From Somniosus microcephalus (lineage: Eukaryota), in the NCBI GenBank assembly GCA_052327205.1, contig CM126228.1, positions 21,142,001-21,206,000 of the forward strand: a stretch of 64,000 nt of DNA. The letters run 5' to 3'. Positions 2,700-36,940 of this stretch are shown here, in pieces (position 1 is the stretch's first letter; every line of letters starts with the position of its first letter). The position numbers were made by a program, and so were the translations under genes. The notes under the pieces were generated by a model. The model saw only the letters and a list, made by a program, of their open reading frames with translations. It made no database searches and had not been told where the DNA came from.

Positions 2700-3140
2700 A
2701 TAAAAGAAAAAAACTTGCATTTGTATAGCGACTATCATGACATCCCAAAACACTTTACAGCCAATGAAGTACTTTTGAAGTGTAGTCACTGTTGTAATGT
2801 CGGAACCGCAGCAGCCAATATGCACACAGCAAGCTCTCACAAACCGTAATGTGATAATGACCAGATAATCTGTTCCAGCGATCATGATTGAAGGATAAAT
2901 ATTGACAGGAGGAGAACTTATCTGCTCTTCTTCGAATAGTGCCATTGGATCTACCTGAAAGGGCAGATGGGACCTCAGTTTAATGTTTCACCTGAAAGAC
3001 GGCACCTCCGACAGTGCAGCACTCCCTCAGTACAGCACTGGAGTGTCAGCCTAGATTTTGGGCTCAAGTCTCTGGAGTGGGACTTGAACCCACAACCTAC
3101 TGACTCAGAGAGATGGTACCAACTGAGTCGAAGCTGATTG
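2700..3140 (-). mobile_element. tRNA-derived Deu-type SINE with an L2-like 3' tail
   Basis: tRNA-like head on the minus strand (gacttgaacccacaacc...tgactcagag = rc of a B-box region), central gcactccctcagtacagcactggagtgtcagcctaga, and a tail aacttgcattt(g/a)tatagc shared with the L2 ends at about 41745 and 45143. Confidence 0.7.
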
Positions 3141-4375: not shown

Positions 4376-4576
4376 ATACAAAAGCAAAATACCGCGGATG
4401 CTGGAAATCTGAAATAAAAACAGAAAATGCTGGGAACACTCAGCAGGTCAGACAGCATCCGTGGAGAGAGAAACAGAGTTAACGTTTCAGGTCCATGACC
4501 CTTCTTCAGAACATTAACTCTCCACAGATGCCGCCTTACCTGCTGAGTATTCCCAGCATTTTCTGTTTTTATTTTA
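4376..4576. mobile_element. Penelope-type fold-back element (inverted pseudo-LTR halves)
   Basis: About 57-bp inverted repeat (aaataaaaacagaaaatgctgggaacactcagcaggtc...gtggagag versus ctctccacagatg...cccagcattttctgtttttattt). It encloses a hammerhead core; a second copy lies at 43796-43986. Confidence 0.7.
4478..4512 (-). ncRNA. Minimal type I hammerhead ribozyme motif
   Basis: Minus strand GUU-CUGAAGA-AGGGUCAUGGACCU-GAAA-CGUU^AAC: intact CUGANGA and GAAA cores, stem II AGG(G)UC/GACCU, loopless palindromic stem III, and stem I GUU/AAC. Confidence 0.6.
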
Positions 4577-5827
4577 GAATGACCTCTGACCCTATCGTCT
4601 AACATCACTGCGTTAAACGAGTTAAACCAGTCTGCTTCCGGGAAATAAGGACTGCTGGGAGAGAAGTAGTTAGTAAGAAAGATGTATAAAAACACATTAA
4701 AATTGCTGGTAAGTGCGTCAAATACATATTTATTAAAGATGTATAAAACCATGGTGTCGAAAACAACTTAAAAAAAAATTTCCTCCAAGGTCGGATATTA
4801 CCTTTTTTATATATAACTTTGACGGGGTGGCCACTGTTCCAACAATGCTCGCCCCACAGGCATTTACACTTCAGGAACCCCCCAGGAGATTTCGGTGTAT
4901 GTAGTCCGACCTGAACTAGCTAAATCAACGATATTCCCCTCGAACACTAGTATGAGATAAAGTGGAGAGTTTCCAGCGTCAAGTTAGCTTGCCTGTAAAG
5001 TTCTACGCCCTCTACTTTCTATGCCCGTGCGAATGACAAATTAAAACTTTAATGGTTATACTTCACACACCCCAGTGCTTTAAAACGTTAAACAAATTTA
5101 AGATTCTTTGGATGTGCGGTCTTTCTTGCGAAAGGACCCTGCCTTTGTATATATTTTTTAAACATAAAAAAACGAGACTTTAAACATAGCGTAAGAGCCT
5201 TCTAAGTGACGAAGTGATATCTTGAACCTTGTTTTTTTTTGGCATTTTAATTTGTTGGGATCTGGCAGTGTTTGTAACACCCGAAGTGCCTGCTAAGATA
5301 TCTCGGAAGATGTTCGGCTCTGCAAGTCATACAGCATTTTTTTTTCTTCATCAGCTTTCTCTGAACATGAGAACAGAACTCTTTACCTGCAGATTGTATC
5401 AGAAAGGTTTGGTTGCTTGAGAAACCTACTATGTACACCATTGGAACAAACACGGATACATAAATTAAGACAGGAATCAAAAAAATATTTACATGAGACA
5501 AACGGGATTAAAATAAATCACAGCACACCAACATTTTTGCAGGAAATACTGACACGTATCTTAGCAGAGAATGGCTTACCCTGTAAAAAGGACTACTAAT
5601 AAAACACAAAAGCCCAGTTTAATTGAAAAGAAAAAAAATCAGGTTTCCTCCCACAACCAACCCCACACAACCCCCTCATCGCCAAAATACTTCTTCCTCG
5701 AGCGCATCAGAGTTCTGCCAAATCTACAAAATAAATAATTATAAAGCTTTGAAGTAACGTTAACAATTATCAAACTATTAAGTTCTGCCTTATCACATAG
5801 ACTCTCTATACAACATAACCCTAAAGA

Positions 5828-8800
5828 TTTATTACTATGAGGTATCTTGAGAAATTGGTTAAAGGATGCACGGCCTCCGTTTGTGTGGATACTCTAGGAC
5901 GCAAAAAAGAGCTTTGGTTGTCAGCAAAAAGTGGAAATATCCTTTGGTATCAAAGAAAGTTTCATTGCATGGTTGCACTGCAAAGCACCACGGTGAAAAG
6001 TTATTCCATTTTTCTTTAAATAGTGGCCTTTCTAGAGGCTGAGGTATTCAAGAGTAAGGTGAGAAGAGGTCAACAGCGGTTTAACACTTTGGTTCAAGCA
6101 AGGCACTCGTCCTATGATTTTACAAATTTTGCAATATGTTTGCCTATAGCTTTTTATGAAGAAAACTTCACACTGAGTGACAGTTGAGGGTTTAAGGAAA
6201 GAACGCCGAGTAGCCCACTCACGAAGGCCGTGCAAGAAAAATCTTTGGTATTCTTTGGTATCATCGATGTGATTAAAATCACGAATGGAAATCGAGTGAG
6301 GTAGCATCTTTGGTTCACACTATAAATAGTAGATCTTTACACATTTTTACACGTGGAAGCAGCTATTTTACCTTTGCTTCTTTGTCTTAATACTAGTAAA
6401 TGATTACCAAATGTATCGTAAAGCTAACCACACCACAAGAAACACAAGGCCAGAATATTGTTAAAATCCGGATTATTATCCATCGCAATGGCCTCCTGCG
6501 CATGAACGCACCTGGCTAAATGCCACCTTTGAAAATCCACTAGTACATTCTCTTTGTGCTGGGGGCCTTTTCTTGTTAAAGCGTTAGACAGTTTTCTTTG
6601 GTCGTCATAGAAGGGAATGGGGGGAGTGTAGGGGAAGGAGGATTATAAAATACTCTTCAAATTTATAACGGGAATTTAGTGGTAACATTCACTCAAGGGA
6701 AGATACGAAAACAACTGATAGAAATATATATTTCATATCACCCTAATTTTCCCGGCATGGGGGAGGGGAGATTGAGTGGACAGATAATAATCACAGAATA
6801 TGACTCCGACTCAAACTAAATTTGAAACCCTAAATATGTTTCAACGATTTTCAGAAATGTCACATTAAAGCTGCAAATAAACACCGATGTATTTTCAGAG
6901 AAATGGCGCCAGAGACCTTTCAACACTTTCAAAAGGGTGGGATTTCACACTAGGGAGAAATCGTTAAAAAGTCTAAATGCATTGCAGCATTTTCCTTTCA
7001 GAAAATGAGAGAAAGACAAATTCCTTCAACAGTTTAAATGCACCAATTACTCTTATTTTCTCACGACCTAGGCACCCATTTATGTGCCCCCACGCTCTGA
7101 CTATCACTTCATGATATAATGATATCCAGGTTTTTTTGGTTTTATATATGTACATTGTGTGATCCCCATTTGACAGTTACTTGGTTACAAAACAGTTCAG
7201 TTTTAAAATTGCGAAACAAAATAAACGTGAAGATGAACATTTACTTTGGGGTTTCGCTTGCATATTCAGTTAGAGTTGAGGTAAAGAAGTTATTTTAATG
7301 AGTCCTTTAACTGGAAACGACCATCGTCACAATTGTTGAATATAGTCAATCCTTGTCATGTATGTAAGACACGTGCCATTTACTTTGACAAGCTATAAGA
7401 TATGTCATACCAATGAAAGGGTCATGGCAGAATAGAACAACATTAACAACAGCAGTAGGCTTGTTAAGGCAAATTCAACTTCACCAGGTCGTTCGTCTTC
7501 TACTCCTGAGATTGAGTTATCAGTCTCTCTGCTCAAGCCTGTTTTGAGTCGCATGTACAGGTGTTAAGCCAATAAAGTCCAACCCGTCTATAACAAACAT
7601 TTTACTATTCGTGTGTCATGTCATACGCCCCATTAAGTTGTTGCCCAATCCAAGTACCTTGTTTGCACCATGACCCACTTCAGCTGATGGCACAGCTATG
7701 TGACACGATGGTATCCTGAAAGTGGATACTAAGACAGTCGGTCGGGTTACAAAATGGGCTGGTTTTCCACTGTAGCTCGCCGACTTCTAACACAAGTGCA
7801 ATGTTCCTGAATAAAAAGTTATCTTTGGTTTTTTAGCAGAGACTATACATGAATTTTTTTTAAAGCACAAAGGGTAATATGTAACTGCAACTGGGTGACT
7901 GAAAAGTTGCTTCCTGTCAAGGATAATACAGCTCTTGACCAAAACCTGAAACATATGGTGCTCAGTATCCCAGACTTGTATTGGACAGAGTTTGATCTCT
8001 CTTCTGTTTCACTGTGGGAAACTAACCTGAATCGTGTAACAACCTTTAGTGTTTACAGTATTGAGCAGTAAAGTGCCTCCCTTTTAATTGGTGCATCAAA
8101 ACGGTTTGCTAGTTTTACTGTCAGCATTTGCTGAACGGGAATGTAGAAACAATCCTTGTACTGCACTGACTGCCCAGAGTTAGACACTAAACGCTCCCAG
8201 ATCCCTGGAGACCAAAGTTGTGTAGATTGTTTTGGCAGCGTTGATGGGGTGGGGCGATTGCATCTATTATGGGCCAAGAGTTGAAACTTTCTTAACCAAC
8301 AATTTACCTAGTTCTGCATACTGGTTTTCTTTTTAATGTTTAATGATGAGGGAGTTTTTTATTTTTAAAAAGTGGTTCATTTTTCAGGATTTAATGCTCC
8401 TGGACCAATATATTTAACAAACTCTATAAATGATTATTTCCCTGACACATTGGGTAAGTACGGTTTAAGAGTTATGCTCTGATTATCGTTTTGTAGGTCA
8501 GGGGGTCTTAGAATGTACGATATCAAGGGAGTTAAAGAACTTTGCCCTAAAGCATAACAGACAAGTACTGTAAAATAAGTTAGTCGCGATAGTTTGTGTT
8601 ATTTTGTTCTTAAGTGGGACGCTTTCATATTGAATTCTTGGGTCAAATTTAGGCGAATTTGATATAACGTGTGCTTCCAAATACAGGCTAGACTACACCT
8701 GGTAGCTGTATCAGGAAAGGACTTCTAGTATTAATCACTGATTTGTTGTAACAGTCTGTTCAATGCAGTATTAATCTCTATTAGCGTGTTTGATAATGCG

Positions 8801-9753
8801 GAGCCCATGTGGGAAACCACACCACCCCTAAACACGTTGCCTTGTCTGCTGCGATTTGGATAGCAAGGAACACGGATAGAATGATGCCTAACTGATCCTA
8901 ATATTACTGGCAAATTTCTTTTAACACATAAAACAAAGGTTCTTCAAATACAATACCGTGTCATTAACTTAGTGTGCAAAATACATTCGAATAGAAAATA
9001 ACAAATGATGGATTTCAAAAACTCCCAATAAAATTAATATTTGTGCTTCTTGCGAAATCTCGCGGTCATCTATCCTGCTCTTTGCTATCCAACATAATCC
9101 ACTACACTGGGTTTGGTGTTGTTAAAGATTATTTGGGGCCGTTAGCTGTTGTATAATTGTTGCATTTCGTGCGCCAAGTGGAACAAAGAGGATGTACTAG
9201 TGTGAGGCGACAGAACAGCTCTCAGCACCTTGAACACTGTGCCCAAAATCGGCGCTTCCGGGTTCAAACAGCAAAGAGCTAGAATCCAATCACATTCCAA
9301 ATGAACATAGACGACTCCACAATTGTACGGTCGTGCCTGAGCACAACCTGCAGACCAGCCCCTTGCAAAGTCTCTGGCCACTGGGCCGTACACGGTACTT
9401 TTACAACATACACCTTCATGGTATTCCCGTAGAAGTGAAATGGGTCAATGTTTGAAGTAATGGTCTTTTCATAACAACATGACGATGCTCCCAACGACTC
9501 ACAGCCACACACGTTGAACGATGCTGAGTGTGATGAAAGTGTACGACCAGCGGCTTCTTTCTTACTTTTTTTTTGCAAAAGTCATAATAAAGTGTTGTAG
9601 AACGGAGTCCTAATGCAGGTCAATTAAGTCTTTGGTTTCGTTGGACATATAAATATTATATTGTCTTTGAGTTCAATAATTAAACCTGCTATCTGGAGGT
9701 CCTGGTCATTTATTTTAAAGCTATTCCACCGAGGTTTAGTCCGGGGGTCCCCT
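5828..9753 (-). promoter_or_regulatory. Inferred long ONECUT1 3' UTR with clustered miRNA seed sites
   Basis: Nine miR-9 seed matches on the mRNA strand between 5912 and 9636, plus let-7, miR-124 and miR-218 sites. Candidate AATAAA on the minus strand at 5833-5828. The distal end is uncertain. Confidence 0.6.
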
Positions 9754-10046
9754 TCATGCTTTGGTACAAGTGCTTGATGAGGAAGATGAATTGACTGAGT
9801 TGGTGCTGCCGTCATCCTGCCACTTATCCAAACTCCTCCGGCGCGCGTTCATAAAGAAGTTGCTGACAGTGCTCAGCTCCAGCCCCAGCTGCTGAGAAAT
9901 GGTTATTTGCAATTCTTTGGACGGACGCTTGTTTTCTTTGAATATTGCGTGTAGAGTTCTGCGCTGAACGTCTGTGAAGACCAGCCGAGGCTTTTTGGGC
10001 GTCGCGCCCCTCTCTTTGCCATGCTCCTGCTCTTTTCGTTTGCACG
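9754..10046 (-). CDS. ONECUT1: ONECUT1/HNF6 coding exon 2 (homeodomain and C-terminus)
   Basis: Not in the ORF track in the right frame. After the acceptor cctttgctttgcag| it reads (A)CKRKEQEHGKERGATPKKPRLVFTDVQRRTLHAIFKENKRPSKELQITISQQLGLELSTVSNFFMNARRRSLDKWQDDGSTNSVNSSSSSSTCTKA*, with the onecut-specific FFMN in helix 3. 293 nt; 1090+293=1383 nt = 460 aa + stop, and the phase matches exon 1. Confidence 0.96.
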
Positions 10047-11597
10047 CTGCAAAGCAAAGGAGGTAAAATGAATCGACCAGCCGAAGAAAATATCAGGCAG
10101 TTTCATAAAAAGGAACAGATGTAATGATCTGAACAATATCGAGTTGCATTATTCAGCCCAAGCTCTCTTAGTTTCCAAATAAGATCCCAATTAGTCATTT
10201 AACGATTCGAGATTTCTTCCTCAAGGAGCTATATGTCAATTTCGGGTCGATTACTGACAACAATTTAAATGTAACCAGTTGTATGTGAGTGGGGATATTG
10301 ACTGAACGGGAGTCCTCAGTGAAAGAGATCTCTGGAGAAAAATTTAAATATATGTAAAGATTTACACAAGTGGCAGGATTAAAGTCCCCCAGCACAGGAC
10401 GAAGGAATGTATTCTTTTATAAACAAGGATATTACAGCAACGTCGGCCATGCACGTCACTGCTTGCAACGAGAAGCAAGGATTGGGATTATGGAACGGCC
10501 ATTTGGGCCATCCATCTCATTCTGATCATTAAGTCTAGACTAGTTTTCTGTGCTGCCTTTTCTAATACCATTTCACTCCAAGTGCAAGTCCATATCTTCA
10601 CTTCTCTTCCTATTCAGGAATTCGCCCAACTCTGTAGAATCAAGTTAGGATTAGGGTTAGGGAATAACCTGTTCTTGGTATCATCTTGTCTCCCAATCTG
10701 ACACCTTTCATGTGCGAATACTGATACCAGAATTTGTTTTAAGGGTGGAGAGCTTTTTGAATATTTTTTGTCGGGGGAAATAAGCCTGTTGGAAAAAGCT
10801 TCGTTGCTGATACAGATAAGGAATGGATATTTCTATTAGATTCCTAATAATAGCAAAATGCTGTTCTACTGGAGAGCCCAGGTATATCAGATAGATGGTG
10901 CAGCTCTAACTGAATTCAAATCTATTACTGCAATTAAAATCTAACGACTACTTTCAAAAGGAACTACTTATTAAAGACAAATTATAGATTGACTTGATAA
11001 ACAGAATTGTTATCTATCAAACACTGACCCAAGTGAAATTGTTTTACAGTTTCTGCCGATAGATTAAACAGTCTTGTACCACAGTGCCTTTATCTTAAAT
11101 CCGTTTTACAAATACAGCAAAACCAAATATTTTAAACTTTCAAATTGCACTTGAGGCCGTTCGCTCAATGACACAATGGCGGTCTTTACAAATTGATGTA
11201 ATATTACTTAGAATTCAACCTTTGTCTCTTGCTTGTACTCACCACAATCAAGAAGAAACTGCTTTTCGTTTTGGATTTTTTTTTAAAAATGCACACTGCT
11301 TAGTACAAAGCTTTCAGTTGCCAATGACTACAGTGTAAAATAGAGCTGTGGCTGTCCAATGAAAGATGCTTCAGCGGAGGTCAGAGAGGTGAGAGGCTCA
11401 TTCCACACAGAGAGGCACCTAACCTGCAGCCCAAGATAAAGATAAATCTGCCAAATGTCATTTATCATGGAAATAACTAAGGGGAAGAGGAGGATATCGA
11501 TCAAAATTACTTCACTTAAGGTCGCTGCTTTTAAAAGGATGTGAACTTTAAAAAAATGTTTTGGGTAACCAAACGGAGAAAGAATGAAACTGCGAAC

Positions 11598-11618
11598 TGA
11601 GCTGTCCGTGGTGCTGAA
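11598..11618 (-). promoter_or_regulatory. RE1/NRSE (REST binding site) in the ONECUT1 intron
   Basis: Minus strand TTCAGCACCACGGACAGCTCA matches the canonical TTCAGCACCACGGACAGCGCC at 19/21 positions, with both half-sites and the 2-bp spacer intact. Confidence 0.85.
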
Positions 11619-12113
11619 TCCCATCTCCACGCCCCATTTGGCCAGCGATGCGGCCCGGGGACCCGAGGGTTAAACAGCAGAACTTGCACAGGCGCTGACT
11701 GCTGTGTAAACAGCGTTTGCGCCACTGGTCCCATTTCAACCCTTTCTAAACCAACCTTAGATTGTAAAATTAAGCACTCTGCCCATTGTGATTAAAATAA
11801 TAACCCAATTAATCTCTAATCCCAGCATATTGTCTGTTTTCAGAACAGAGTTGGTTAAAATCTTTCTAAAAGTTGCATTTTATCCCTGCTGACTGTAACT
11901 GGGACAACATCGTCATTAAATCATGGAGGAATTCATAACAATAGAACGGCGCCCTATTCCACGAGACTGCTGCCTCGAGCCAACGTCCAGTGTTTACCCG
12001 TTGTACTAAATTACGTGGGCTTCACTTCACTGCTCACTGTTGCAAACGTAGGTGTTTATATCTCTAAATATTTATTCAGTCCATGACGTAGGGAACTGAA
12101 GCCACAGACTCAA

Positions 12114-12127
12114 CCAGTAGATGGCGG
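12114..12127 (+). promoter_or_regulatory. CTCF motif in the ONECUT1 intron
   Basis: CCAGTAGATGGCGG matches the CTCF core CCASYAGRKGGCR. Confidence 0.6.
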
Positions 12128-15100
12128 CCTGGTCCTTTGCAACATGTCGATTGTGACCAGCAAACAGTAACTCATTTGGTCTTTGATTATTTGAATTAGT
12201 TCCAGCTACATACCAAACATGTGGACACTAAGGCTACGTTTTCATTATGAAGGAAGACTGATAGAACTATGTAAAGTCATCTTTTGCATATGTTTAAGGC
12301 TAAAGGCGGAAAAGCGTCCCATCGCTCCTTTAGATTTGCAATTTGTTCAATTTGGAAACACTAGTAAGACTGTATAAATGTAATGTTTTTGTTATTTACC
12401 ATTCGAAGGTTTTAATATTAGGTTTAACAACACATGTTTTTTAATCGAGTGTGTTTAATTACATTAAATTACACTCAAAATCCCAACAAAATATTACTCC
12501 CTGGAAAAGTAAGGCATTCACTCCAATGTGGGAGCGAAGGAGGATCCCATCTAAAGTACTACAATACTTTATTTTCTAATTTGAAAATAAACGTACTTGT
12601 TATGAACATTTCTTCTGAGTATCTCTGGCCACAACAAGCAACGCGAAGTGGCGAAGTGTCTGAAATAATAATTGTGCACATTTTTAAACAGCTCCTGCTG
12701 AAACGCTGTAACTACAAGCTGTGCCAATTTCGCAGCAGCCACAGGGCGCCTTCCTTTGCCTCCCTTTAATTGCTTCCACGTCATTTGACCTAAATCAATC
12801 ACTTCACTCAAATTAGATATAGGCAGATAACACTTTAAACTTCATCATTTACCTATTAATTACAATCGTCGTCATCTTCGTAAGTGCAAAAAGGCTATCA
12901 ATAGTGCTTTTAATTATTTACTGAAACCTAATCGAAACGAGACTGTTACACAAATGGCCAGAGAATGAACTAAGAGGAGCTTGTAATTCTATTCTAAAAT
13001 CCGCGGTTTGACATTGTGTTTTGGTTGTAAAAATCATTGTACCCCGTAAACAACTGCTGAAAGTCTGCATGTATAGTATACAGAGACAGACTTCATCTAA
13101 TATTGTAAATTGAATAAGTACACTCGAGTATTCTTAGCCCAAGACTGAAAGTGAAATATTTCGAAAACTATGCTATATTTAAAAATTGTTAATGTCTTTA
13201 AAGAGGAGATTGCATTACCTGCCAGAATATCAGTAACATCGTTTAAATGCTTGTAAATGCCTTCAGTTTAGACAAACATTAACAGAAAACAAATGTGGTT
13301 GGGTATTAGGTAGTTATAAATCAATAAAGTTACAAGGACACTGAGAAGCAAAATCAGGAAATGTCACAGGTGTAGAACTTTCCCAGAGTCCAACTATTTA
13401 GCCTAAAATATTCCAGAACTCGTATCGCATCTCTTATCGTTACAAAGCAAACAAGCAAATAGTGTGCAACGTTGCAAACAGTGGGAACCAATGTTTCCAA
13501 ATGTAACTAACATTCTAAGTCCATGAGAAACCCAAAAGCTTCCATCCAAATGAGGTTGTTCCAATCACACAAAGGAGCCCGTCATACTCTCAGGGAGCTG
13601 CTGGAGTGGTTTAGAACCCAACAAAAACATAGAAACGCACGTCTGCGCATTGGTGGACAGGTGAATTTCTGGGTCAGAATTTTAATTAAAGTAATTAATC
13701 ACAAGGGAGCTTTCTGAAAAAAGATGTCCTATAATTCTTGAAACATATCGAGGCCTTGTTAGAGGAGACAGCTGGAATAATTAAACATTTCAGGTTGCTA
13801 AGCAACGCAACATAAAATAATAAGGAAATTATTCACAACTTTTGTAAAATGTCTGTTTCACAACTTAAATTTAACAATAAAAATTACACCTTTCTCTTCT
13901 GCCACTTATGTCTGATTAGACCCCAGAAGTAAATACAAATAATGAATGTCTTGCACCATTGATGCACACTTGCTAGTGTGTAGTACCTGGCACTAACTGC
14001 TGTGTAAATTAGAGAGCAATTCACCCAATTTATACCGTTGTTTTTACAGTCTTGAAGCACATTCATCTTAGATCTGAATAGACTTGGCGTTTTAGGTGCT
14101 GCAAGAACACACTTTATAAATATCACAATAAAAATGTGGTTGGATTGATTGTAGCTGAAATTTACACCAGTCACGTCTGCACTTATAAGAACACATGAAC
14201 ATAAGAAATAGGAGCTTGTTTTTTGTGTGTTTGCAAATCACTGTTTGGAATTAACAACTTAATAGCAGTAATAAGAAATGGCGAATACTTAGAGTAATGG
14301 TTGTCCCTTTTCGTAAATAAGAAATATTTAGAAATTCAATCTCAACTAAATGTAACTCCTTAAACCCGTGACATTTGTTTGCGCATGTCACTGTTAAATG
14401 GGCCGAAACTGGAGAACTGACATGTTAATATATTCACAAAATACCGTTTGAAAAGGCTATTTACATCCGTGGGCCTGCTGAGAAAATGCAGATAAGTGGC
14501 TGGTATCTCAGCTGGCCTCGACGGATTCCTGTAATATCTGTTTTATGTACATTTCCACAATCTGCAGATCCTGACTTCCCCAATTATATCAGGGCGCAAC
14601 ACAGATAAGTGGAAAGAAAAGTTGAAATACCCTCTAAATACCCGTAACAACCAATGGGCGATGTTAAAACGATATTCATTTGAATCGAATTAACTCACTT
14701 GCAAATATTGTCAATAATTACCTGCGCGCAATCCAGGAAAATTTTCCAACAATTTCGAACGCTTTGAAACGTCTAACAAGCACCTTTTGTTTTATATTCT
14801 TGATTTTAAAATTATTGCAAATACTCCACCTTGTTAGATGAATGAACTCATTATATATTTTTATGGGAATTAAGTTCTGAAGAGATTTTTACATGGCGAA
14901 TTATCAGGCATATTGTGAAGCAGTGATAGTTAATAAGCAACATGTGGATACTGTGAGGTAGGACATTTTTTGACCAGCGTATGCTGCATTTTGTGGAGTT
15001 AAGCACTTTCTTGTCCCACAACTACAGCCAACATGTGTCAATTCTCCGCTGAATGGGCCATTTAAGTTGTTTCGCCAATTGCCCTGAAACCTGCCACTTG

Positions 15101-18100
15101 CTGTCCCCAAAAAGGCTGTTTGTTTACAGTAGAGTTTTTCCTCCATTATGGTCAAAACCATCTTCCATTGTTTGGAAATTATTATCTGAAAATGATTCAT
15201 TACGTCAGTGTAAGATTTGTATTGTGTCATAGCGTTCGTCTGTGTAAATGTAAAGCCAAGTACGAATAAAATCTGTCAGCTACCTTTTTAAAAATCTAAG
15301 AAACCAATTAAAAATGCAATAAAAAATCGTGCACTTAGATTTTTCAAAGTAAATGTGTATAAAAATGGGGTAAATCTAGATTTGAAATATGAAGAAGGAA
15401 CAAAATGGAGGCTGGAGAGGTCAGACTTGTAATTAGTGTCCTCTGCTTACATTTGAAGACAGTACAGGAAGTGTCAAGACCTCAATATTCCTTACATGTA
15501 ACTACCAATTTTTAGACTGTTTGCGGGAGGTTCAATGTAATCTCGGTGCTAGAAATCCCCCAGGGAGCCGCTGGATGAGGCAAACACAGGAGGCTGGCTG
15601 GACAAAGCAAGGAGAGAGCCGTATGAATAACACATTTCACTTAGCCCATAAAATTGTTTCAGCCTCTTCACAGAAGGACGTTTACCAAAAAAAACCCTTA
15701 TACAAAGCAATGAAACCGGCTGCTGTTCAGGTACAGGCTGGCAGGAAGACGGAAAGCAGCCCAGATTAACAGCTGTTAAATAATCACTCCCACACACGGT
15801 GTGCTTTCAAGATTCGGCGTGTTAACTCCGCCAAAAGATCAAAAACATAGCAAAGGTATCCAAGTTAATGAACACTTTGTTTACCTCCAATATCTGCCAC
15901 ATAATTCATTGTTTCTGTGTGGGATTTTATGGGAATTGTTTATCGGGCTAACACATTTTGCTATCTAATTTGTTAGAATTATTTCTGCAAAAACATGGTT
16001 ATGCACACGTATATCATATATTCAGACAAGTCGTTTCTTTAATTTTCTGTTTAAAAGAGGATCTGTGTTTTTCAGTGTAAAAGAATAAATAATAAATGAA
16101 TTGACTAAATAATATAGCACAGGTTAGGACACGATTAGATGGCTTTCCATCAGGTTGTTGTGTTTAGCACTATAAATATAACGACTATACGTAAACATTT
16201 ATTACTTAATGGACACACACAAAGAATTGTAATGTCTGAGATATCGCAGCTAACATTCCAATCTCCTTTAAAGGCCACGGCGAACTGAAATAAATGCATA
16301 TTAATAAGGTAAACAGAAAGGGTCTGTGGTTAAAGAGGTGATTAGCAATCCAAATCAGTGTGTGGGTATTTTCTATTGAGATGGAGACGTGACCTGTTCT
16401 AACATCAGCCAGCCCGCCTTGGCAGCGTTTACCTTCAGATAACACCCATAAGACTCGACAACATATTCTAATTCAAGTGGTTGTTTCCAGTATCGATCCA
16501 TGCAAATAAATGTAGACTGAGGTCGACAAAATTGTCGTAAAAATACACTCAAGGCTGCTTCTAAAAATCGAACAATGCGAATGTTATCAATCGTTCGATG
16601 GAGATTTCTTGGCGAGCTATTTACTCAACCGTACGCATGCTCTCAGAGCGATTGGATCTGGATTTTAATTATAGGACATGAAGAGCTGAAAATAGGTCAG
16701 TTTCTACAAATATATATACATTTATATATATATACGGTTTGCATGTGTCTTTTGCTATCTTGTGTAAGCTACGATTTAATATTCAAACGGGGCTTTCCGT
16801 GGCCAGAAGCAACTTTCTAAGTATTGCTCAATATTTTTTCTGCGAATAATTGAATTTTAACGAGGTTAGTATATTATTTTCTAAATAAAGTAGATTTTCA
16901 GATGAAACTACAACCTTTGCTGTAATCCATTCTGAAGTAAACGTTAGACTGCTAACGCACTGTGATTCGTTTTAAAACCAAAACCAAGTTTCCATTACGT
17001 TTTACAGCTGGGATCCGGAGAGTTCTGCATATTAATTGCTTTCCCATTATTATTATATATATAATCGCACTTCTTTTACAAAAATGACACACAATACGGC
17101 GAGCAAATACAGAAAAAAACCAGCCTTCCTTTGTGCTCTTGAAGTCTGAATTAAAAATGCCCACAAGTGCACGTCAGAGCCTGTGTGAAACGGATCACTG
17201 CTCCTGACTCTGGCTCAGATTGACTGTCTTTCGTTCTCTTGGGAAAAATTAATGGAGACCTATCAGTTAATTAACAAAGCCTCACGCAGGGCCACACCGA
17301 GAGAACAAACCCAGGCTGTCCTCACTCGGTGCAACACAATTCAAAAGTTACCAAAAGTAACAAGACGCCTTTTTTTCATAAATCACTGGCTACAGATCTG
17401 ATGCTTAATAAATCTGTAGGGCTCGAAATGACACCAATTAATACTCTGCATGGCTTCCTGTAAACTCGAGTCAAACGAGTATGTGAAACCAATGGCTAAT
17501 CATTTAATTTCATGGGCTTCAAAACAAACACATTTGGATTCCGGTCTGTCCTGGAAAGGTTGGGTTACTGATTTAACTCTACAACGCTACTGTAAGGGGG
17601 AGCGGTCGATTGTCAAAGGCGTTTGGATTCTCGTCTGGCTCTGAATACAACCGAGTCACAAAACTGAAGTGACATTTTGTGAGATTAGTTTCCATTCTAC
17701 TGTAGACAGACCCGCACCAGTGCAGTTAGATCAGCAACCCGGGGCTGCACTGGTCCCCTTGAACAATTGGGGCACGGGGCACAGGTGCAATGGGACTGCA
17801 AGTCGAGAGAGACAGGGGCTGCACCGCCGCGATCGCTGTGACAATAAAAACATTTACTACTGTAACAGAACTGATCAGACAAGTTTGGGATTGAGGGCTG
17901 CGTTCGATTGTGGGTTAGGATCCTGGTATTCGAACTAGACTTAAGAGAGCCCAATTATAAACAACCTTTTACTAGAATGGGGGTTTCTGTCTTGTCCTTT
18001 TGTATCATAGTCGCCCCTGTGAATCTCTTTACTGACACGGCCATTGTGTGACCATAGCACCAAGTACAAGACCCATTCACAGAGAGAGAGAGAGAGCGCG

Positions 18101-18111
18101 CTGGTCCTTAC

Positions 18112-19201
18112 CTGCCAACCTCAGAGCCGACATTCGTTGGAACTCAGGCTCTTGTAGCCACTTCCACATGCGCCTGAAGGTCTCCCGGCCCGACTTGAGT
18201 TTACTCCAGGGTTTGGGGTTCCTCAGCAGGTCGGACAGGGTCCCCTGCGAGCGGCACAGCACCCGCTGCGCGAAGATGGCTTGCGGGATGCTGTAGCGCT
18301 TCAATTCGGTGGTGATCCTCTGGGCGATTTCTTTGGTGTTGATCTCCTCCAGCTGGCCCGAGCCCCCGCCGCCGCTGGACTGCGATCCGTTGGAGGAAGG
18401 AGGCTGCTGCTCGGCCCGGCCCGAGCCCAGGACCTGCCCGTGGCCCTGGGCGTGCGGGTGGACGTGCGGCGGGTGGTGGTGGTGGAGCCCATTGATGGGC
18501 ACCATGCCCACGGAGGGAGGGCTCAGCCCGCGGCTCAGGTGCTGCTCCCCCCGGCTCAGCATGCCCGGGTGGCCCTCGAAGCCGTTGGGGGTCAGCATCT
18601 TGTCGCCGGGCATGGGTCCGGCGTGCCCGTAAGGTGGCAGGCCGTTCTGCGAGTTGTGGATGGTGCCCAGGCCATTGGGTAGAGAGGAGCCGGACAGAGG
18701 CGACAGGCTTTGGCCCATGCCGGCCATATCCTTGTGGTAGTGGCTGTACAGATTGTTCATCGAAGTCAAACCCCTGTCGTCTCGCATCAGGGTGAAGCTG
18801 CCGCTCACGTTGCCCGTCAAGCGCTGGTGGTGATGGTGGTGGTGGTGGTGATGGTGGGCGAACTTGTCGGAGACGGTGGAGATGGGCGGCAGCGGCTGCA
18901 GCGGGGTCAGGGTGGTGTAGGTGCTGCTCATGCTCATCCCCGGCGGGGTCTCGCAAGCCATGGTCATGGTGGGGTGCAGCGGGGCGGCCAGGGCGTGCTC
19001 CGGGGGCCGGTGGTAGTCGCCCGGAGCCTCCAGGATCGAAGCCATGCTGGACACCATGGAGCGAGCGTGGACCGGCAGGTTGCGGTGGCCGATCGGGCGG
19101 CCGTGGGGACTCTGGCCGCTCATCAGGTCGCCGGGCTGCACCGGATCATGAGCCACCCCGTGCAAATCGCCCAGATTCTCCATCGACAGCTGAGCGTTCA
19201 T
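18112..19201 (-). CDS. ONECUT1: ONECUT1/HNF6 coding exon 1 (N-terminus, TP box, poly-His, CUT domain)
   Basis: Translation MNAQLSMENLGDLHGV...TYTTLTPLQPLPPISTVSDKF-H10-QRL...EEINTKEIAQRITTELKRYSIPQAIFAQRVLCRSQGTLSDLLRNPKPWSKLKSGRETFRRMWKWLQEPEFQRMSALRLA. The MNAQL start and the ITTELK residues favour ONECUT1 over ONECUT2/3. The exon ends at a canonical donor GCAG|gtaagg (intron starts at 18111); 1090 nt, phase 1. Confidence 0.95.
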
Positions 19202-19760
19202 GCTTCTCGCAAGCTTTTAGTCCGAACATCTATCTGGCGTGTCCCCGGGAGAGCTCCACAACACGAGGTTCAGTTGCACTTTGCATTTCATTCATTCATT
19301 CATTCATTTATTTCTGCCAAATTTCATCTATTGTCACCCCCTTCGGACCCCCTTTTTTTCTCTCTCTCTCTTTCTCTCGTCTTCTTCTCTTCTCTCCCTT
19401 CGCTTGAAGGTTTTCTCTCCCACCCCCTCCCTCCCTCCCTCCCTCCCACCGCTTGTTGGGGCTCAGATCGCCGGCAGCCGCGGTGCCCGCCCGCTCCTGT
19501 CCCTCGCCGTCTCTCCAGCCATGTCCTCCTTGTGTGTGTCGGCTCCACACTTGGCTTGTCTTTGGCCCCAGCCGCCGCCGCCGCTGCTGCAGCCCCCCCG
19601 CCCCCCGCCCCCCACCCCATCCAGCCGGCGGGGCGCTGCGCACTCTCTGTCTGCGCACTCCTCTGCAGCCGCCCTGACGTCAAGCCCACCAATTGCAATT
19701 TGGCATTTCACTTCCGGGTTTCCCTTGTCAACACAAAATAGAGAGAGAGAGGAGAGAGGA
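19202..19760 (-). promoter_or_regulatory. ONECUT1 5' leader and GC-rich proximal promoter
   Basis: CpG-rich region with a perfect CRE TGACGTCA (19675-19682), CCAAT (19689-19693) overlapping the palindrome AATTGCAATT, ETS CCGGAAGT on the minus strand (19710-19717), and GC/purine tracts. The TSS cannot be determined from sequence alone. Confidence 0.65.
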
Positions 19761-21832
19761 AATCAAATCACAGCCTCCTGTTTAAAGCAATCCTGGCTCC
19801 AAGCTGCACATTGCACCTCCTCCTCCTCCCCCATCACACTCTCCACCAACACACATTCCTCTATTGCATTCAACAGCAAATGCTGCATCTAAAACATTTT
19901 GCACTAACTTTCAGATTTAAAAACATTGTATCTCAACGCATTTTACTCATAATCGGACTTATTTATAAACCAGCCGCACGGCACACACGGGTTAATTGAT
20001 TTTTTTTTTTAGGAATTTATTAAAACTGACCCGAAATTGACAGGCAGCCGAGATATTTTAGAAAAGGACCTCGTTCAGATCAACTCCAAACTGAACAGCG
20101 TCCCCGTTCTGATCCACTCGCTCCTCGGACGGCCACGGCCCGTTTAATTCCACGTATTTTTCATAAAAAAAAATCACTGAGCCCAGGTTTTTGTTTTTGT
20201 TTCCTTGCGGGAAATGAAGTTGATGTAATGGCGGCTCCACTGTAGATCAGGCTGGGAATGAAAGGCAGATCGTGGTCCGGCTATTTGTTTAGAGAGAGAG
20301 AAGAGAGAGAGAAGGGGCGGGGGGTGCAAAAATTAAAATTAAAGACCTGTGTTCCCAATCTCACAGCAGCTAGCCACCGGCCGAACATGTCGATTGGAAA
20401 TTCCAGGATAATGACGCAGATGGAAAGTGCAGTCAAAAACTGGTCGCAACATGTTTAGCTGAATTTGTATAATATATGTTTGATCAATAAACTGAGCTTG
20501 GATAGGCCAACAAAAGGAGATGATGTAGATTTAATTAACCACACAAGTCACTTCTGACGACTACAGTGCAACAAAATTGGCAAACAAATTAAATGGAAGA
20601 AGCTTCGAGCCACCGATCTATTTTTAGGTCGGCAATAGTTTGCTCGCTTTGGACTCGATCCCCTTCAAAAAAAATATAACGTTGATTCTCACCGGCAAAT
20701 AATTAAAACAAATAAGTGTTTACATTATGATAGAGACAATGGGTTTTATTTCTAAGAGGGACGCCGATCGACTCATGTCACTGTTTTAAGCACTGTCCCG
20801 ATAGGGTGCTGGCCACAAACGGGACAGATGTGCCTATTGTTCTACGAGTAACAATAACGGATGAGGCTAGACAAGTGTTTGGAAAATGTGGCCCTGTTCT
20901 CGCAGGCGAGCCGCGGGAGGGACGGAATTATGACATAATAGATTATGATATTTGACTGAATTCGAACAGATCTACATGAAATTGGTGAAATTGATTGGAT
21001 AGCAGAGAGTCGAATGATGGATATAAACAGGGCAAGTGTCGAATTATTGTCAGAATCCCATGTACAGAGAAGCCACGAGCAGGAATCAATCAATCACTCT
21101 TTTATTTCAGGAAAATTAAAACTATTATTATGATGGCAATTATGACATGACAAAGTGCTGAACATAACATTAGCGAACAAAACATTAACAACAAACAGAT
21201 GAACAGGATAATGTAAAACAAATCAGTGCAGGGACAGCGTATGTTACATTATCTGTTTAATCAAGCCCCAATTAGCATTAAGATGGATGCATTGCAGCAT
21301 TTATATCATTAAGCCATTATCTCGGCAGGAGTGTTTAGCAGCAACTGTTTCCATCAGTTATTTGCAATACATCTTCGGAAACAATGAAATAATCTCTGTA
21401 AAAGACAACCATTACTTTGTTGTCATGCTTCAAATATGCAGCAACTGAAGTTTCATCAATTAATAGCTTGTATTCTGATTATTGATTTGATTAATACTGT
21501 GGAATCTTACTCAATGCAATAGATTAGGTGGGACAACAAGTTGTACATAACCAGACCTGCATATAGCCCTGTCAGTACGATATCATGGAAATACTGGGAC
21601 CTCAAATCAATTTGCCACAAATTGGCTTATCTTAGATTTATACATACGTGTGGACTCAAATTTTGTTTTTCTAAAGTTCGATTAATAGTTGAAGTACCCA
21701 AAAAAGTGAAAATCTTAATAAGAAAAAAGTGGGGATTGGTAAATTATCTTTCATTAGATTGTGACAAAAACATGAATATAACACCACTGTTTTTTTAATC
21801 ATTGATCCATTCTTAATTCTTAATATAAACTG

Positions 21833-27800: not shown

Positions 27801-29475
27801 AAGTTTTAAACGGGATAGCATTTCAAAGAGACATGAGATTGCACGTCAATCAACTTGCAATTATCAATATAAAAGCCTTTGCGGGTTTACCGCACATAAA
27901 TACTAAAGGATGTGCAGCGATAACTAAATCGAAAACTTGAGTCCCTCAATCAATAACAGGGACGAATATATTTCAGCTTTTCACACTGTTGCGCCAAACA
28001 ATTCAATGCTTTTTGAAGAGGTTTAGTCACAACAGACAAACTTGCAGTGGTATCTGGATATTCATTTTTCCATACCAGTGCAACGTAATTTTAGATCACA
28101 ATAATCCATATTTTCATAAAGCACTGGGCTCGTTATCATTTTTCAGAGTAATACACAGCTCATCTCGTGTGTTACTTCACCTCCCCATTTCTGAGCTGGC
28201 GCCCTCTCAACCAATACAGACCAGTCGTCATTTCACCGCAGTTACCAAGCAGACATGGAGTCGAACTCCTCCTTCAAAGTACCGCAATCGCTCTTATCAA
28301 ATAATGAAACAGGTCTTACATAATATCATCAGCTACTGCACATCTGACAGTGAGAGTGGCAAAGTTTTTCTACTGCAACTCAAAGAGAAGCAAGGGTTTG
28401 AACCTATTCACAGCCCCGAACTGCTATATTTAATTAGCCTTATAGCTTGTTCAGTGAAATGAAACATTAAAAAGTTCGAATGTTCTCCTATCTTTTACTG
28501 TACCCATTACCCATTGAGTAAATAACGTATTGTGAAAATCGGAAACGACTAAACATCGAACTTTGGCATTTATGTAATCGCTACCATTGACACTAGAATG
28601 CCACCCGTGAGCTATCCCTCCCCTTATAATTCAAAATATCTGTTCAAGCCCCATCGTCATTCTACAGCAATGAACATCAGCCCCTGGGACAATAATATTA
28701 TATTCTAAGAAAATAAATCAGCAAGTTGATTGAGGCGAATGTCTGAAGAATTCTAAATGGCTAAGGAACTGTAAAACATTTAGTTCCTAAGTGCTGATAA
28801 AATCTGAACACCGCACATCATTAATAAACAGTATCATAATTAATGATAGAATTACAGAACTAAAAAAAACCACGACTCAGGCCTTAGAACAAATAGATTA
28901 GCAACAGAACCCGCTTTTTAAACAGAGTTAAGACAGTACTATTGACAGTACTGTATAAATATTTCTGTATTTTTTCTCAGTTGACTGAACGCATTTTATT
29001 ACACATTTGTATAATGACTAAAGGCATCAGACACAATCTTTATGAAACCGGTTTCCATAACTAATATGTCCCACTATAAAAAGAAAGCCTACCTACATTT
29101 GTACCCCACTGGTTCACGTAAATAACCCGATAACCGCTGATTTACTGCAAAATGTACTTTTGAAATCTTTACATGGAAATGTTGGTGCATCGAAGGCGGC
29201 TGCTACACTTCAGAAAACCCATTCATTACAGAGCGGCTGGATTCACACACATACTTCCAACAATCCCGAACAGCTTTATATTAGAATGGCCTTTAGCCGA
29301 GGAACAGAGAGAAGATCTATAACTAAGCATCATATTTGCAAGTTGCGAATGCAATATAAGAAAATGGAATTAATATGACTGGAAGGTAATGCTCTGCCAG
29401 TTTTATTATACGCATAAATAGGATAGTGTTAGGTTTTTGAACAGTAAGTTGGAGGCGATGGTCTATTTTATTCAG

Positions 29476-31004
29476 ATTTGCATGGTACTGCACTTTATCT
29501 TAATGAGTTGGTTTGGTAATCTCAGTTCACGAAGACGGTAGCCTAACATTTGCATATTTATCAATAATATATTTGTAATAGTTTCAGATTAATCCGCCTC
29601 GATTAAACTAAATTGTTGTATTTTAATGAACATGACCATATGAACAAGGTACTGCGGAAATTGCACATTCGGGATGGTCATTAAGCCAGTACACCTACTC
29701 TTCGACAAATGCGCTGTAATTTGTGCACCGAACTCTCAAATTCTCTGAAATATGTGAGATATTAAAAGCTGGAATCTACACGTCACTTCCTGTTTTTACC
29801 ATTCAGAAAAAGTTTGCAAGGTCTGGTTCTGCAGTCAAACGAAACAGAATTAATGAATTACATTTATTGAAACATGCCAAAAGTACTCGGAGCTGCTCAA
29901 TCCTCGATGTTCAGTCACCACCAACAGCCAGGACCTGCTCCCCCGTTTACGCACAGTTTCAGCTCATTTTTGTCCAAAGTTTCTCATTTTAAATTGCCAA
30001 ATTCTTACTTGATTTGGGACACACACACACACACAGTGTTTAGGTTTTGGGCTGGGCAAATTGCAGTAAAAACTGCCTAACGGCACATTCCTGTTTCTTT
30101 ACACTTCCATCCCAGCTCACATCCAAATATATTCTCAGTTCAACACTTTTTTTAAAAATCTCCCCACCCCCCCGGCCCGGATGTTGACATCTCTTTCCAA
30201 GGATTGAACGCGGCGCCCTTTCTCCCCCACGTCCTTTAACAGGAGTGTGATGCTGCAGGTTCTCCGCGCCCCTGACACACGCCCTGGCCCTCGCAGGCTT
30301 TCGGAGCTGGTTCGCAGGTCCGCTCCTAAACTCAGCGGGGTGCCCAATGTCACTGGGACACTGTAGCCGATGGCTATTGATAACCGTATCCCTTGGATTT
30401 ACCAATTCTGACTTTAACGGTGCATACAGATATACTTACCGAAATCCGTGCAAAAGGCATATTTGCATCATTTCGTGGCATGTTGCATCTCATAAACATC
30501 CACAGGCAGCCAGATCTCGTACATGCCCCAAGCAAAATATATCTGCATAATTTCAATTGGAAGATCTGCTGCTTAGCTCCTGTCCCATCTTTTTAACTCT
30601 TTTTTTAGGTGCTTAAAATAGAAAAGTTTATCAGCAGGTGATCGCTTGTCCGGGGGATCGCCTGCAGTCAGTCGGAGAATAAGACCATTCGGTCCCCGGG
30701 CCAAGGTAATCTCCAGTCCCCTTTGGCCCATCCTTGGGAGTTCAGGAGAAAGATCAGAGATCGCCCCCCGCGCCACCCACCCCCCTCCACCCCATTCCTC
30801 TCCGTCTCGCTTTCACCAAACGGTTCGTCGGAAAATAATGTTTTTTTTTGAAAAAAAAGATAAACCAAAAGCCTCCATCCCTGGCCGTGGGGCAGGCAGC
30901 TCGTTTCGGCCAGTATATCCTCGCATTTGGAGATGCTGCTTGCATTTGAATAGCGCTGGCTTGTTATGTATCTCGCTGGTATGAAAGGGAATCAGTATGC
31001 AAAT
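29476..31004. promoter_or_regulatory. Candidate upstream enhancer with four perfect octamer motifs and a GC/CpG-rich patch
   Basis: ATTTGCAT at 29476, 29548 and 30461; ATGCAAAT at 30997; CpG-rich stretch at about 30150-30900. Confidence 0.4.
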
Positions 31005-34000
31005 TGCTTCAGTTACAATCGAAAGGTTCGATCTGAAGTGGATGCTAACGGAAGTGGATGTCAGCTATCTCTGCATTAGCCGAGATATATCTGCCCAGTG
31101 ATGCAGCGGTTTAAAATTCTTGTTAATTAAAACAACGAGCGAGCTTGCAACATGTCTGCTTTCTCTCTCTTCCCCCCCCCCCCCCCTCCCCCGTGATCAG
31201 CCCCTTTAACACAATTATTATTCTGCAGGTGTTATTTGATGGCTTGTAGTGAGTGTTTGTGCAATACAACAGGCTAAGTGCTTGCAGTAAGGATCTGGGC
31301 ACCAGCTCTAGATCACAGAGCACCCCCCCCCCCCCACCCCCCCAACCGCAGTCTCCAAATCCAAACGTTTACCAATCAATACATGCAAGAAATGAACCTG
31401 GAGAAAAAAAGATGTGTTGCTGCGGTTTAACGGTTTATCCCAGGCAAATATACAGCACTGCCTTACGTCAGTTCTACCTGGACCAACCTTTCACTCGCTC
31501 AAATCCGAGGAAAAAGAAAGATGGGTTTGATTGCGGTAACGTGCTGTCTGTTCCGACTGCTATAGGTTAAAACTGCCCTTTTTGACCCCTCTCGCTGCAA
31601 AGCCAGAAATCATATAACATTCCAGATGTAATGTCGGTGGACTTGGGCGACATGCTCTCAGAAGACAAGCGGGCGGACGTTTTAAGGGTTATCATTAATG
31701 GTGATTTGGATTTGTTTTTCATCTTAGAAAGGAAGATTTTAGAGCTGACAGCACAATATAAACCCACGGCCGCTGTCGTGTTTCTCACCGAAAGGGATAT
31801 TTTATTGATCCACCTTCTTGAAAATTGCATTGGCGCTGGTCCCAGGTCATTAATACCCAAACTGTGCTTCACAGCAGCTCTCGGAGATGCGCAGTGTTTT
31901 GAATGACGGGGCTTCCTGTTAAAACAACCCGGGAAGCACCAAGCCTCAGAAAACCATTTTTAACAGAAACTTTTCGATTCTGAGATCAAAGCCTTTTGCG
32001 GATATTAATCCATAAGGTGGCCTACAGTTCCCTATCCTTTGAAATAAAATTGTTGGTATATTGTTTAGACAGTAAAATTATTGGAAAATATATTTAAAAA
32101 GATAGCCACCCCGCCATGATTTTTTTTAATGTGCAATTGTCAGCAAGTTCCTTATATTTTCTCTTTCAAGTTTCAGATTTCTTTTATTCAGCCCATTTTG
32201 TGTTTTAATTTTGAGCAAATCTTCGTTTGCCGTGGAGTCTTACGCAGCGAGCCGTGCTGACAATGTTGTTACAGAATAGCAGCGCGCCGACTCCATCCCA
32301 CTTGTCTAAATGATCAGGGAGAATTCTTAAAACCCTGCTGTGTATCTATTGACAGCTGACTTTATTCATACGGGACGTACTTAGCTGACAGTCCCCAGTA
32401 TGCGTCTCCGATTTGCTCACGCCACCAAAATCATTTGGGCTATAAGGGCACACCTTAGCAACCTTGTAATCCATTTTGTTTCTAATAATACTGGAATCTA
32501 ATTCATTTGGAACATAACGCAAACCAATTGATGGAGATGGGAGAAGAACCCCTTTGCAGTGAGGCTGATTTTGACAGGAGAGCGCTATAGGTGCTTTGCT
32601 CTCTGCGATGATCTTACGGTCTCGCTGCTGCCTTGCCCCAGTTGAAGCTTATGGCTAGTCTAAGCTGACCATCTGTCATTCAATTAACGTTTCAAGGCAG
32701 CTGATCTGTAACCAGGAGGGTCAGCGACCCCAGGACAAACCCAATGCTGCCAGAGAAAGGCGACAAAGTTCAAATGTTAAACGCCTGGCACTTTACAGAA
32801 TTTGGGCAGCCCAGGAAATTTGCCTATGTAAAGCTTGCATTGAGGTCTCCCGGGAGTCAACACCCAGATTTCGATTTAAAGATGTCAGCATACTTACACC
32901 ATTTTATTCTTCTGAAAAACCAAAAACACTCTTAGCGAACAATAGATTAACAGGGGCTGGGTTTTGTTCAATGTCACGTTTAAAGTTGTATCAGTTCTTC
33001 TGGAGATGGGAGTAGATTTGAGCAAAACACTTTTTTCCCCCTCTTGTAAAGTTACGCAAATTTCCTTGAGGTGATTTCTTGCTGCAGGGATATTCTAAAG
33101 CGACTGGAAGACGGGGAGGCAGAATCGCAGAATTAATGAAAGTGACTCAATTGATTTGTCAGTAAGCGGCAAAATTTACCGCCACGTCATCATAATCATA
33201 ATTCATAACCCCCTCCCATTCATGATAAAAAAAATTTGGAATTTCCAATTTCTCATTCTATAAATCCTAAGCAGTCAAACTTACCCGGAATATGAAACAG
33301 CGCCTTGAATATCGAGAATTTTTATTACAGTCTGCAACTTGGTTATGTTGGTGTCGTAAATTCATGCTTGGAATGTCATCCTATACACAATTATTTTTAA
33401 AAAATCAGGTATTCTCTAACTCTTAAAATGTACACACAGCCTATAGAAATACAGGTCTAACGAGTTATCTAAAGCTTTCCCTCGGAAGACCAGGACACAT
33501 TGAGCTTCAGCTATGCTAATTGATTCACTATAAATATTTAACTAGCGTCCTCATTGGAGCAGGTACGATTGGGCTTCTTTCTAAACACGTGTAATCTATA
33601 GTCAGAGTTCATCTGCATCCCTGTACTTTGAGGAATGTTCGCTTCTATCTAGATTTGTTCTGTCCTACACCCAAATTGGGCGAATACAAATACTGCAGGT
33701 AGAAAGCGGAATGATATTCGAGCAAAATAACGCAATTTCTACGTCGGATCGATTGGCCACGAATTTTAACCTTTTAATCATAATTTTCTTTTTAGATCCC
33801 AAGAAAGTGAACCCTTCTTCCCAATAACATATTTTCAAGGCCCATCCTTCAAGTATTGAGGCATATAACTATTAATATTCTGAAATATAACTGCTGTTCG
33901 GGAATGTGTAGGATATTATTCAGAGCTTAATAGCTTCTGAAGATATTGAAAAATCAGCAGAAATTATTTCAGGTCACGTGGAGGGTCTAAGCTAGTTTCC

Positions 34001-36816: not shown

Positions 36817-36861
36817 TACATACACACACACATATATATACACATATTTTCCGCTTATCTA

Positions 36862-36940
36862 ATAAGAACATAAGAAATAGGAGCAGGCGTAGGCCATACG
36901 GCCCCTCGAGCCTGCTCCACCATTCAATAAGATCATGGCG
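36862..36940 (-). mobile_element. CR1 3' tail fragment
   Basis: ataagaacataagaaataggagcagg...ggcccctcgagcctgctccaccattcaataagatcatggc, near-identical to the CR1 end at about 54647-54727. Confidence 0.8.

Follow-up and report, generated by a model that had tools for sequence, protein, structure and literature searches.

The closest described systems are the Onecut genes of mammals and birds. In the mouse, the RE1 mus19025:136 (PWM score, 0.9235) is located in intron 1 of Onecut1, 5,176 bp past exon 1 and 20,728 bp ahead of exon 2, is assigned the '+' direction, and has ChIP-PET support of 15 tags from ES cells and nine from neural stem cells (PMC2573930). REST is also bound at the Onecut1 site in the E13.5 mouse pancreas, 6,635 bp past the start (PMC8415321), and, according to a review (PMC5323410), REST sites close to Onecut1 were detected in the ChIP-seq of Johnson 2007. 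In human ES cells, the REST peak assigned to ONECUT1 (chr15:53,075,562–53,075,880, hg19; score, 2,758) is counted as conserved, its mouse partner being chr9:74,868,433–74,868,655 (PMC4499139). Mammalian binding, which the initial annotation had proposed as a check, is thus documented for the mouse intron-1 RE1 in ES, neural stem and E13.5 pancreas cells and, for human, by an ONECUT1 peak syntenic with that of the mouse. The paralogue ONECUT2 offers a second likeness, combining an intragenic REST site with a long 3′ region dense in miR-9 sites (PMC4499139, PMC8415321, PMC10356556); its conserved REST peak occurs ~11.5 kb past the start (PMC4499139, PMC8415321) and its 14.6-kb 3′ UTR possesses up to 26 miR-9 sites (PMC10356556). 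For the cartilaginous fish, a precedent for RE1/NRSE elements is found in the protocadherin cluster of the elephant shark, with five sites predicted in silico, though this is a different locus at which the sets of sites differ between species without a positionally kept site (PMC2926608).

A second layer of control has been described in birds, where onecut1 is under miR-9 repression in the motor neurons of the chick (Luxenhofer 2014, as presented in the review PMC5415563), ending Onecut expression as the early-born types yield to later ones (PMC5415563). Onecut factors label the first-formed neurons and are quickly lost (PMC8612522), such that the transient expression window put forward for the gene studied here is, in early neurons, an established property of the Onecut genes. 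REST and miR-9/miR-124 have been described as a feedback loop, and this double-negative loop supplies both regulators of the feed-forward loop proposed below.

In the 64-kb stretch of DNA analysed here (the window), one intact protein-coding gene was identified, on the minus strand. Coding exon 1 (18112–19201, ATG at 19201) encodes a CUT domain and is enclosed by a 1.8-kb CpG island (17993–19798), the single intron of the coding region (10047–18111; 8,065 bp) is bounded by GT...AG in phase 1, and coding exon 2 (9754–10046) encodes a homeodomain and extends to the stop codon. Spliced, the two exons form an open frame of 460 amino acids without internal stop, with one CUT domain (PF02376, E = 1.6e-34) and one divergent homeodomain (PF00046, E = 2.2e-11) detected in Pfam. 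The best PDB match of exon 2 is HNF6 (155.7 bits compared to 124.3 bits for ONECUT2), and the closest proteins are HNF6 of the sharks Pristiophorus (94%) and Heptranchias (91%). In a protein tree of exon 1 and 30 named proteins chosen out of 120 listed, exon 1 was placed inside a 15-row ONECUT1 clade (support, 100/100) as sister to Pristiophorus (support, 100/98). The gene is ONECUT1 and the lineage is shark; the bit scores and the tree rule out ONECUT2 or ONECUT3. Several shark and ray proteins named 'HNF6' or 'ONECUT2' in their sources fall with ONECUT3 in the same tree, and database names of cartilaginous-fish Onecut genes are consequently unreliable.

The sequence TTCAGCACCACGGACAGCTCA (11598–11618, minus strand, sense to ONECUT1) is a canonical RE1/NRSE located, as the initial annotation had placed it, in the sole coding-region intron (10047–18111), 6,493 bp past the exon-1 donor and 1,551 bp ahead of the exon-2 acceptor. 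It consists of a left half-site, a 2-nt spacer and a right half-site, and has two mismatches (19/21) to the 21-bp consensus that we took as the standard form for scoring. The earlier description of the site as near-perfect was upheld, as it is the sole match in the window at three mismatches or fewer and none of 100 dinucleotide shuffles contained any match. Further, it has no mismatch to a published degenerate 17-bp core consensus (PMC4430910); the shuffle control for that core, run at one mismatch, adds no significance because 58 of 100 shuffles match. At two mismatches to a 16-bp RE1 core, the 64-kb window holds four matches in all against 0.38 expected. Weaker RE1-like matches occur on the plus strand at 9222–9237 (in the UTR), 18223–18238 (in the CUT-coding sequence) and 28677–28692 (upstream). 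The RE1 in shark ONECUT1 is a canonical motif that exceeds chance in the window and, as predicted from its sequence, likely binds REST.

Downstream of the stop codon, a putative long 3′ UTR (4729–9753, minus strand) was delimited by an AATAAA at 4734 with U-rich sequence downstream, a signal that would give a 5-kb UTR with all nine miR-9-5p sites. Seven miR-9-5p seed matches are clustered within 690 bp (5912–6602, minus strand), and two more occur at 7823–7829 and 9630–9636 on the same strand, based on microRNA seed sequences that we take to be the accepted ones. The 5 kb past the stop contains nine sense matches and one antisense match (0.64 expected; 0/300 shuffles) and six 8-mers (0.16 expected; 0/300 shuffles). 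This 5-kb region was picked after the cluster had been seen, and the count of sense seeds from the stop to the window edge (10 compared to 1.06 expected) is independent of that choice; an additional match in the last codons (9759–9765) was excluded from the UTR counts. Among 3,546 7-mers the miR-9-5p seed ranks first. The whole window holds 25 matches against 12.9 expected, the excess lying on the sense strand downstream of the stop, and none is present in the ONECUT1 intron. The putative UTR also contains four miR-9-3p seeds (0.53 expected; minus-strand sense starts at 9722, 6872, 6425 and 5748) and four let-7 seeds (0.31 expected; minus-strand sense starts at 7283, 6303, 6046 and 5844), though both, while exceeding the shuffles, were chosen post hoc from a ranked list and fail correction for 3,546 words. 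A possible proximal poly(A) signal, AATAAA at 9709–9714 (minus strand), occurs 40 nt past the stop codon and could give a short mRNA without miR-9-5p sites. Other AATAAA signals on the minus strand include those at 8358–8363, 5828–5833 and 4729–4734.

The initial annotation had paired miR-9 with miR-124 as post-transcriptional repressors, and the two fared differently. The miR-9 arm is strongly supported by both the nine seeds against 0.64 expected after the stop and the published chick repression (PMC5415563), with the difference that repression itself was demonstrated in the chick and the shark contributes seed matches alone. The miR-124 arm was rejected, with seeds at chance level in the 5 kb past the stop (one match each to two 7-mers, compared to 0.26 and 0.37 expected, reached in 71 and 92 of 300 shuffles; no 8-mers), and in this respect the shark ONECUT1 departs from the REST-miR-9/miR-124 loop. 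Two miR-218 matches (0.48 expected; 29/300 shuffles) were likewise not significant. As for ONECUT2, that gene is a paralogue, and the shark ONECUT1 has nine miR-9 sites in ~5 kb; the OC1 UTR is called short in PMC10356556, compared to the putative ~5 kb in shark ONECUT1. Overall, the excess of miR-9-5p seeds lies where a long 3′ UTR would be. MicroRNA control of temporal patterning is also the subject of a 2026 preprint (10.64898/2026.10.02.755877), which reportedly makes heavy use of miR-9 and let-7 and probably covers the UTR arm.

We assign a probability of roughly 60% to the reading that the shark RE1 is the counterpart of the REST-bound mammalian intron-1 site and forms, with the miR-9 cluster, an incoherent feed-forward loop. 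In stem and progenitor cells, REST would occupy the RE1, as it does in the mouse and at the syntenic human position, and would dampen ONECUT1. REST would at the same time repress miR-9 through the double-negative loop established in mammals. The drop in REST at neuronal birth would then free ONECUT1 at once, while the co-released miR-9 would accumulate later, and miR-9, perhaps together with miR-9-3p and let-7, would silence the long-UTR mRNA, through sites present here and in line with the repression demonstrated in chick. The expected outcome would be a pulse of ONECUT1 in early-born neurons, and a loop of this kind fits the expression of Onecut in the earliest neurons and its rapid loss on maturation.

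The functional weight of the RE1 is the weak point of this mechanism. Onecut1 is active in the embryonic pancreas, and REST is reported to be expressed in pancreatic progenitors and ducts. The earlier proposal that the gene is held down in non-neural cells fails as a rule, as REST is bound in the pancreas and its loss in the Rest-knockout mouse pancreas brings no significant rise in Onecut1 (log2FC, 0.30; adjusted P = 0.12; PMC8415321). Given pancreatic binding with a weak knockout effect, 'held down' is better worded as a dampening that strong distal enhancers override in endoderm; located 6–8 kb from the promoter and overridden by endodermal enhancers, the RE1 would be a dampener and not an off-switch. 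It could be argued from the same data that the RE1 is real and bound with little regulatory effect, and that timing is set by distal enhancers and miR-9 alone. Human pancreatic progenitors need an enhancer at a distance of 664 kb to express ONECUT1 (PMC11406439), and Onecut1 is missing from the lists of REST-loss effects searched: Onecut is present in two of the six searched supplements of PMC2573930, both binding tables, with Onecut1 apparently not in the dominant-negative expression list, and Table S7 of PMC4499139 includes Onecut2 and not Onecut1. REST repression is described as strongest from promoter-proximal sites, and in PMC8415321 just 29.8% of the up-regulated genes showed REST binding, with enrichment highest for promoter-proximal binding. 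Such a bystander role is nonetheless unlikely, since selection is implied by the near-perfect shark site together with a strong peak, conserved between human and mouse, in the same intron; further, the negative expression data do not come from newborn neurons, and a review names both Onecut1 and Onecut2 among the targets activated on REST depletion (PMC5323410).

The dampening RE1 of the feed-forward reading can be compared directly with the mouse Onecut1 element, which occurs in the same gene and the same intron and is likewise a canonical 21-bp RE1. Both elements are in sense orientation ('+' in a plus-strand gene for mouse, '-' in a minus-strand gene for shark), a one-in-two test in which the strand of mouse Onecut1 was deduced from signed distances in the supplement of PMC8415321. 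Their distances past exon 1 are similar (5,176 bp in mouse and 6,493 bp in shark), whereas the distances to exon 2 are not (20,728 bp compared to 1,551 bp), the intron being ~26 kb in mouse and 8 kb in shark. The two 21-mers are identical at 14 of 21 positions, with the shark site nearer the consensus and all seven differences outside TCAG, ACC and GGACAG. The mammalian element is REST-bound by ChIP, whereas the shark element is known from its sequence.

Shark and mammalian elements could instead have arisen independently, by turnover or convergence, in which case the link to the gene would be old or repeated and the element itself not ancestral. The identity of 14/21 would suit this account, as would the documented turnover and transposon-borne duplication of RE1s: a human counterpart has been given for 12 of 85 alignable frog sites, and 15–30% of REST peaks have been given as common to human and mouse. 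In 11 rows of the motif table for ES cells, the mouse site's initial 13 bases recur, and a duplicated family is possible (PMC2573930). A Xenopus tropicalis screen of 742 sites contains no onecut gene, though it is a weak test because the strict consensus demands A or C at position 6, and the bound mouse site, with its G there, is itself missed. At genome-average density, from published site counts and genome sizes that we assumed, an 8,065-bp stretch has a ~0.35–0.4% chance of containing an RE1, a value that understates chance because RE1s favour the introns of neural genes. Against independent origins stand the shared gene, intron, orientation and approximate distance from exon 1, the restriction of all seven differences to positions outside the three conserved blocks, the repeat-poor locus, and the strong conserved REST peak of ONECUT2 (PMC4499139, PMC8415321). 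Convergence therefore appears improbable, and the shark RE1 is, to judge by its sequence and position, quite probably homologous to the mammalian Onecut1 intron-1 RE1. Among the literature matches listed, there was no published shark or deep-conservation report of an ONECUT1 RE1. Johnson 2009 (Mol Biol Evol) is said to concern RE1 evolution. The accessible part of PMC6582315 does not mention REST or RE1, and the supplement of PMC1794552, as far as available, lists Onecut2 and not Onecut1.

Adjoining the RE1 is a small GC- and CpG-rich patch (11575–11725; 10 CpG in 150 bp, 58% GC) on the exon-1 side, which is in the top 1% of intron windows with its centre picked post hoc. The local enrichment noted in the initial annotation is real in these terms, but the patch is small and its CpG observed/expected ratio (o/e; 0.69 for 11601–11800) equals the intron average (0.67), since the whole 2–34 kb domain around the gene retains CpG (o/e 0.6–0.9, compared to mostly 0.24–0.5 elsewhere in the window). 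A CpG island at the RE1 was rejected in favor of a 150-bp patch within this domain. No self-repeats were detected at 8–36 kb when the window was compared with itself, and retention of CpG without self-repeats is the typical look of the hypomethylated domains of developmental genes; the 2–34 kb region looks like such a transposon-poor domain. REST peaks have been reported as hypomethylated, with methylation gained on knockout, and in the proposed circuit the patch would likely be a footprint of low methylation protected by REST. The FOX-type GTAAACA previously noted near 11706 is present (11706–11712, plus strand) and was not counted within the element; it is one of 14 copies in the window (9.8 expected; reached in 14/100 shuffles), a chance-level frequency at which it is uninformative, and it was rejected as part of the element.

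A CTCF-like core, CCAGTAGATGGCGG (12114–12127, plus strand), is located 496 bp from the RE1 toward exon 1. It was noted in the initial annotation and matches a CTCF consensus exactly, being the sole 14/14 match in the window to the 14-bp form that we presumed (0/100 shuffles); at one mismatch there are two matches (0.69 expected; 14/100 shuffles), a count near chance. Under the orientation convention that we take to apply, the motif points toward the promoter and the 5′ gene desert. A density of one CTCF motif per 64 kb is unremarkable. The human ONECUT1 domain holds WDR72 as its only other gene (PMC11406439), which, with the direction of the motif, makes a loop anchor plausible, and the motif probably serves as an ordinary anchor directed at the 5′ enhancer desert that is dispensable for the feed-forward loop. 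The RE1, CpG patch and CTCF site might alternatively act as one unit, with REST gating a CTCF anchor that connects distant 5′ enhancers with the promoter. A distance of 496 bp separates the sole RE1 of the window from its sole exact CTCF consensus, a pairing expected at ~1.6% if one site were random in 64 kb (our own post hoc arithmetic), and the human domain with its single other gene is compatible with long-range contacts of this kind. Toward exon 1 from the strong human REST peaks there are also weak, non-conserved ones, at a distance of 622 bp in ONECUT1 and 780 bp in ONECUT2 (PMC4499139). These weak peaks have no mouse counterpart and are candidates at most as CTCF sites, and the CTCF motif itself has no CpG enrichment. 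For ONECUT1, the exon-1 side was called for the strand that we presume the human gene to occupy. In the literature searched, nothing was found on CTCF binding or conservation in the ONECUT1 intron, and a structural unit of this kind is doubtful.

A more elaborate conjecture, offered as a long shot, takes the 496-bp pairing as a hint and reads the weak human peaks at 622 and 780 bp as CTCF sites. An intronic RE1-plus-CTCF cassette would then have existed before the ONECUT1/ONECUT2 duplication and before sharks and bony fish separated, REST would gate a CTCF anchor positioned 500–800 bp to the exon-1 side and tethering the promoter to the far 5′ enhancer desert, both arms of miR-9 together with let-7 would close the expression window from the 3′ UTR, and the proximal poly(A) signal would let liver and pancreas escape. 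Least probable is that the RE1-like sequence has no function and arose by chance or from a transposon: at genome-average density ~3% of random 64-kb windows would carry an RE1 and RE1s can travel on LINE2 elements, but none of the 100 shuffles gave an RE1 match, the intron is the very one bound by REST in the mouse (PMC2573930), and the 1.3 kb around the RE1 and CTCF motifs has no similar stretch elsewhere in the window (best E = 0.07) and lies in the self-repeat-free 8–36 kb. A transposon origin of the RE1 is thus unsupported by self-comparison within the window. A structured RNA reading was rejected, with no Rfam match at gathering thresholds in the 64-kb window, and a scan for bacterial promoters and terminators gave chance-level counts, irrelevant to a vertebrate.

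Several other features of the window were recorded. The presumed promoter contains the window's sole full copy (19675–19682) of what we take to be the CRE palindrome. Within the intron, 14600–14941 combines FOXA-like words with two HNF1-like sites (each at two mismatches) and 200 bp rich in CpG (o/e 1.55), and is a candidate endodermal intronic enhancer, possibly the counterpart of an endodermal intronic enhancer that we presume for mouse Hnf6. ONECUT-like motifs, in the form we assumed for them, occur in the intron (13318–13326) and 2.3 kb upstream of the ATG (21480–21488), suggesting possible autoregulation of ONECUT1. An Hnf6 intronic enhancer is not documented in the accessible part of PMC8452540. 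Upstream of the ATG, at 11 and 17 kb, two GC- and CpG-rich patches (30070–30970 and 36418–36960) are possible enhancers or antisense promoters. No Pfam match was found for a 106-amino-acid frame (31586–31906) or for the long frames at 48890–49891 and 53016–54023. Remnants of DDE_Tnp_4 (Harbinger-type) transposases are present at 50324–50845 and 56558–57103, and remnants of LINE reverse transcriptase/endonuclease at 54700–56200 and 59600–62450. A short repeat with inverted arms of 58–61 bp occurs in two copies (4376–4578 and 43796–43984), and 2760–3130 resembles what we take to be a shark SINE.

As the regulators and most of the links are already published, the finding contributes an age and a handle for testing rather than any new mechanism: REST binding at mammalian Onecut1 and repression by miR-9 were known, and the age of the wiring is new. 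The shark RE1 and miR-9 signature extend the known mammalian and avian arrangement to the cartilaginous fish, and two-layer control of ONECUT1 by REST and miR-9 is, from the sequence evidence, likely as old as the jawed vertebrates. Given the fast turnover of REST sites, a site kept in one intron and one orientation from shark to mammal would be one of few ancient links from REST to a transcription factor. Onecut opens the temporal code of vertebrate neurons, and a single 21-bp element would provide a handle on whether REST or miR-9 sets the Onecut window. If the proposed reading is true, the timing of Onecut by REST and miR-9 would date to the jawed-vertebrate ancestor, about 450 My ago.
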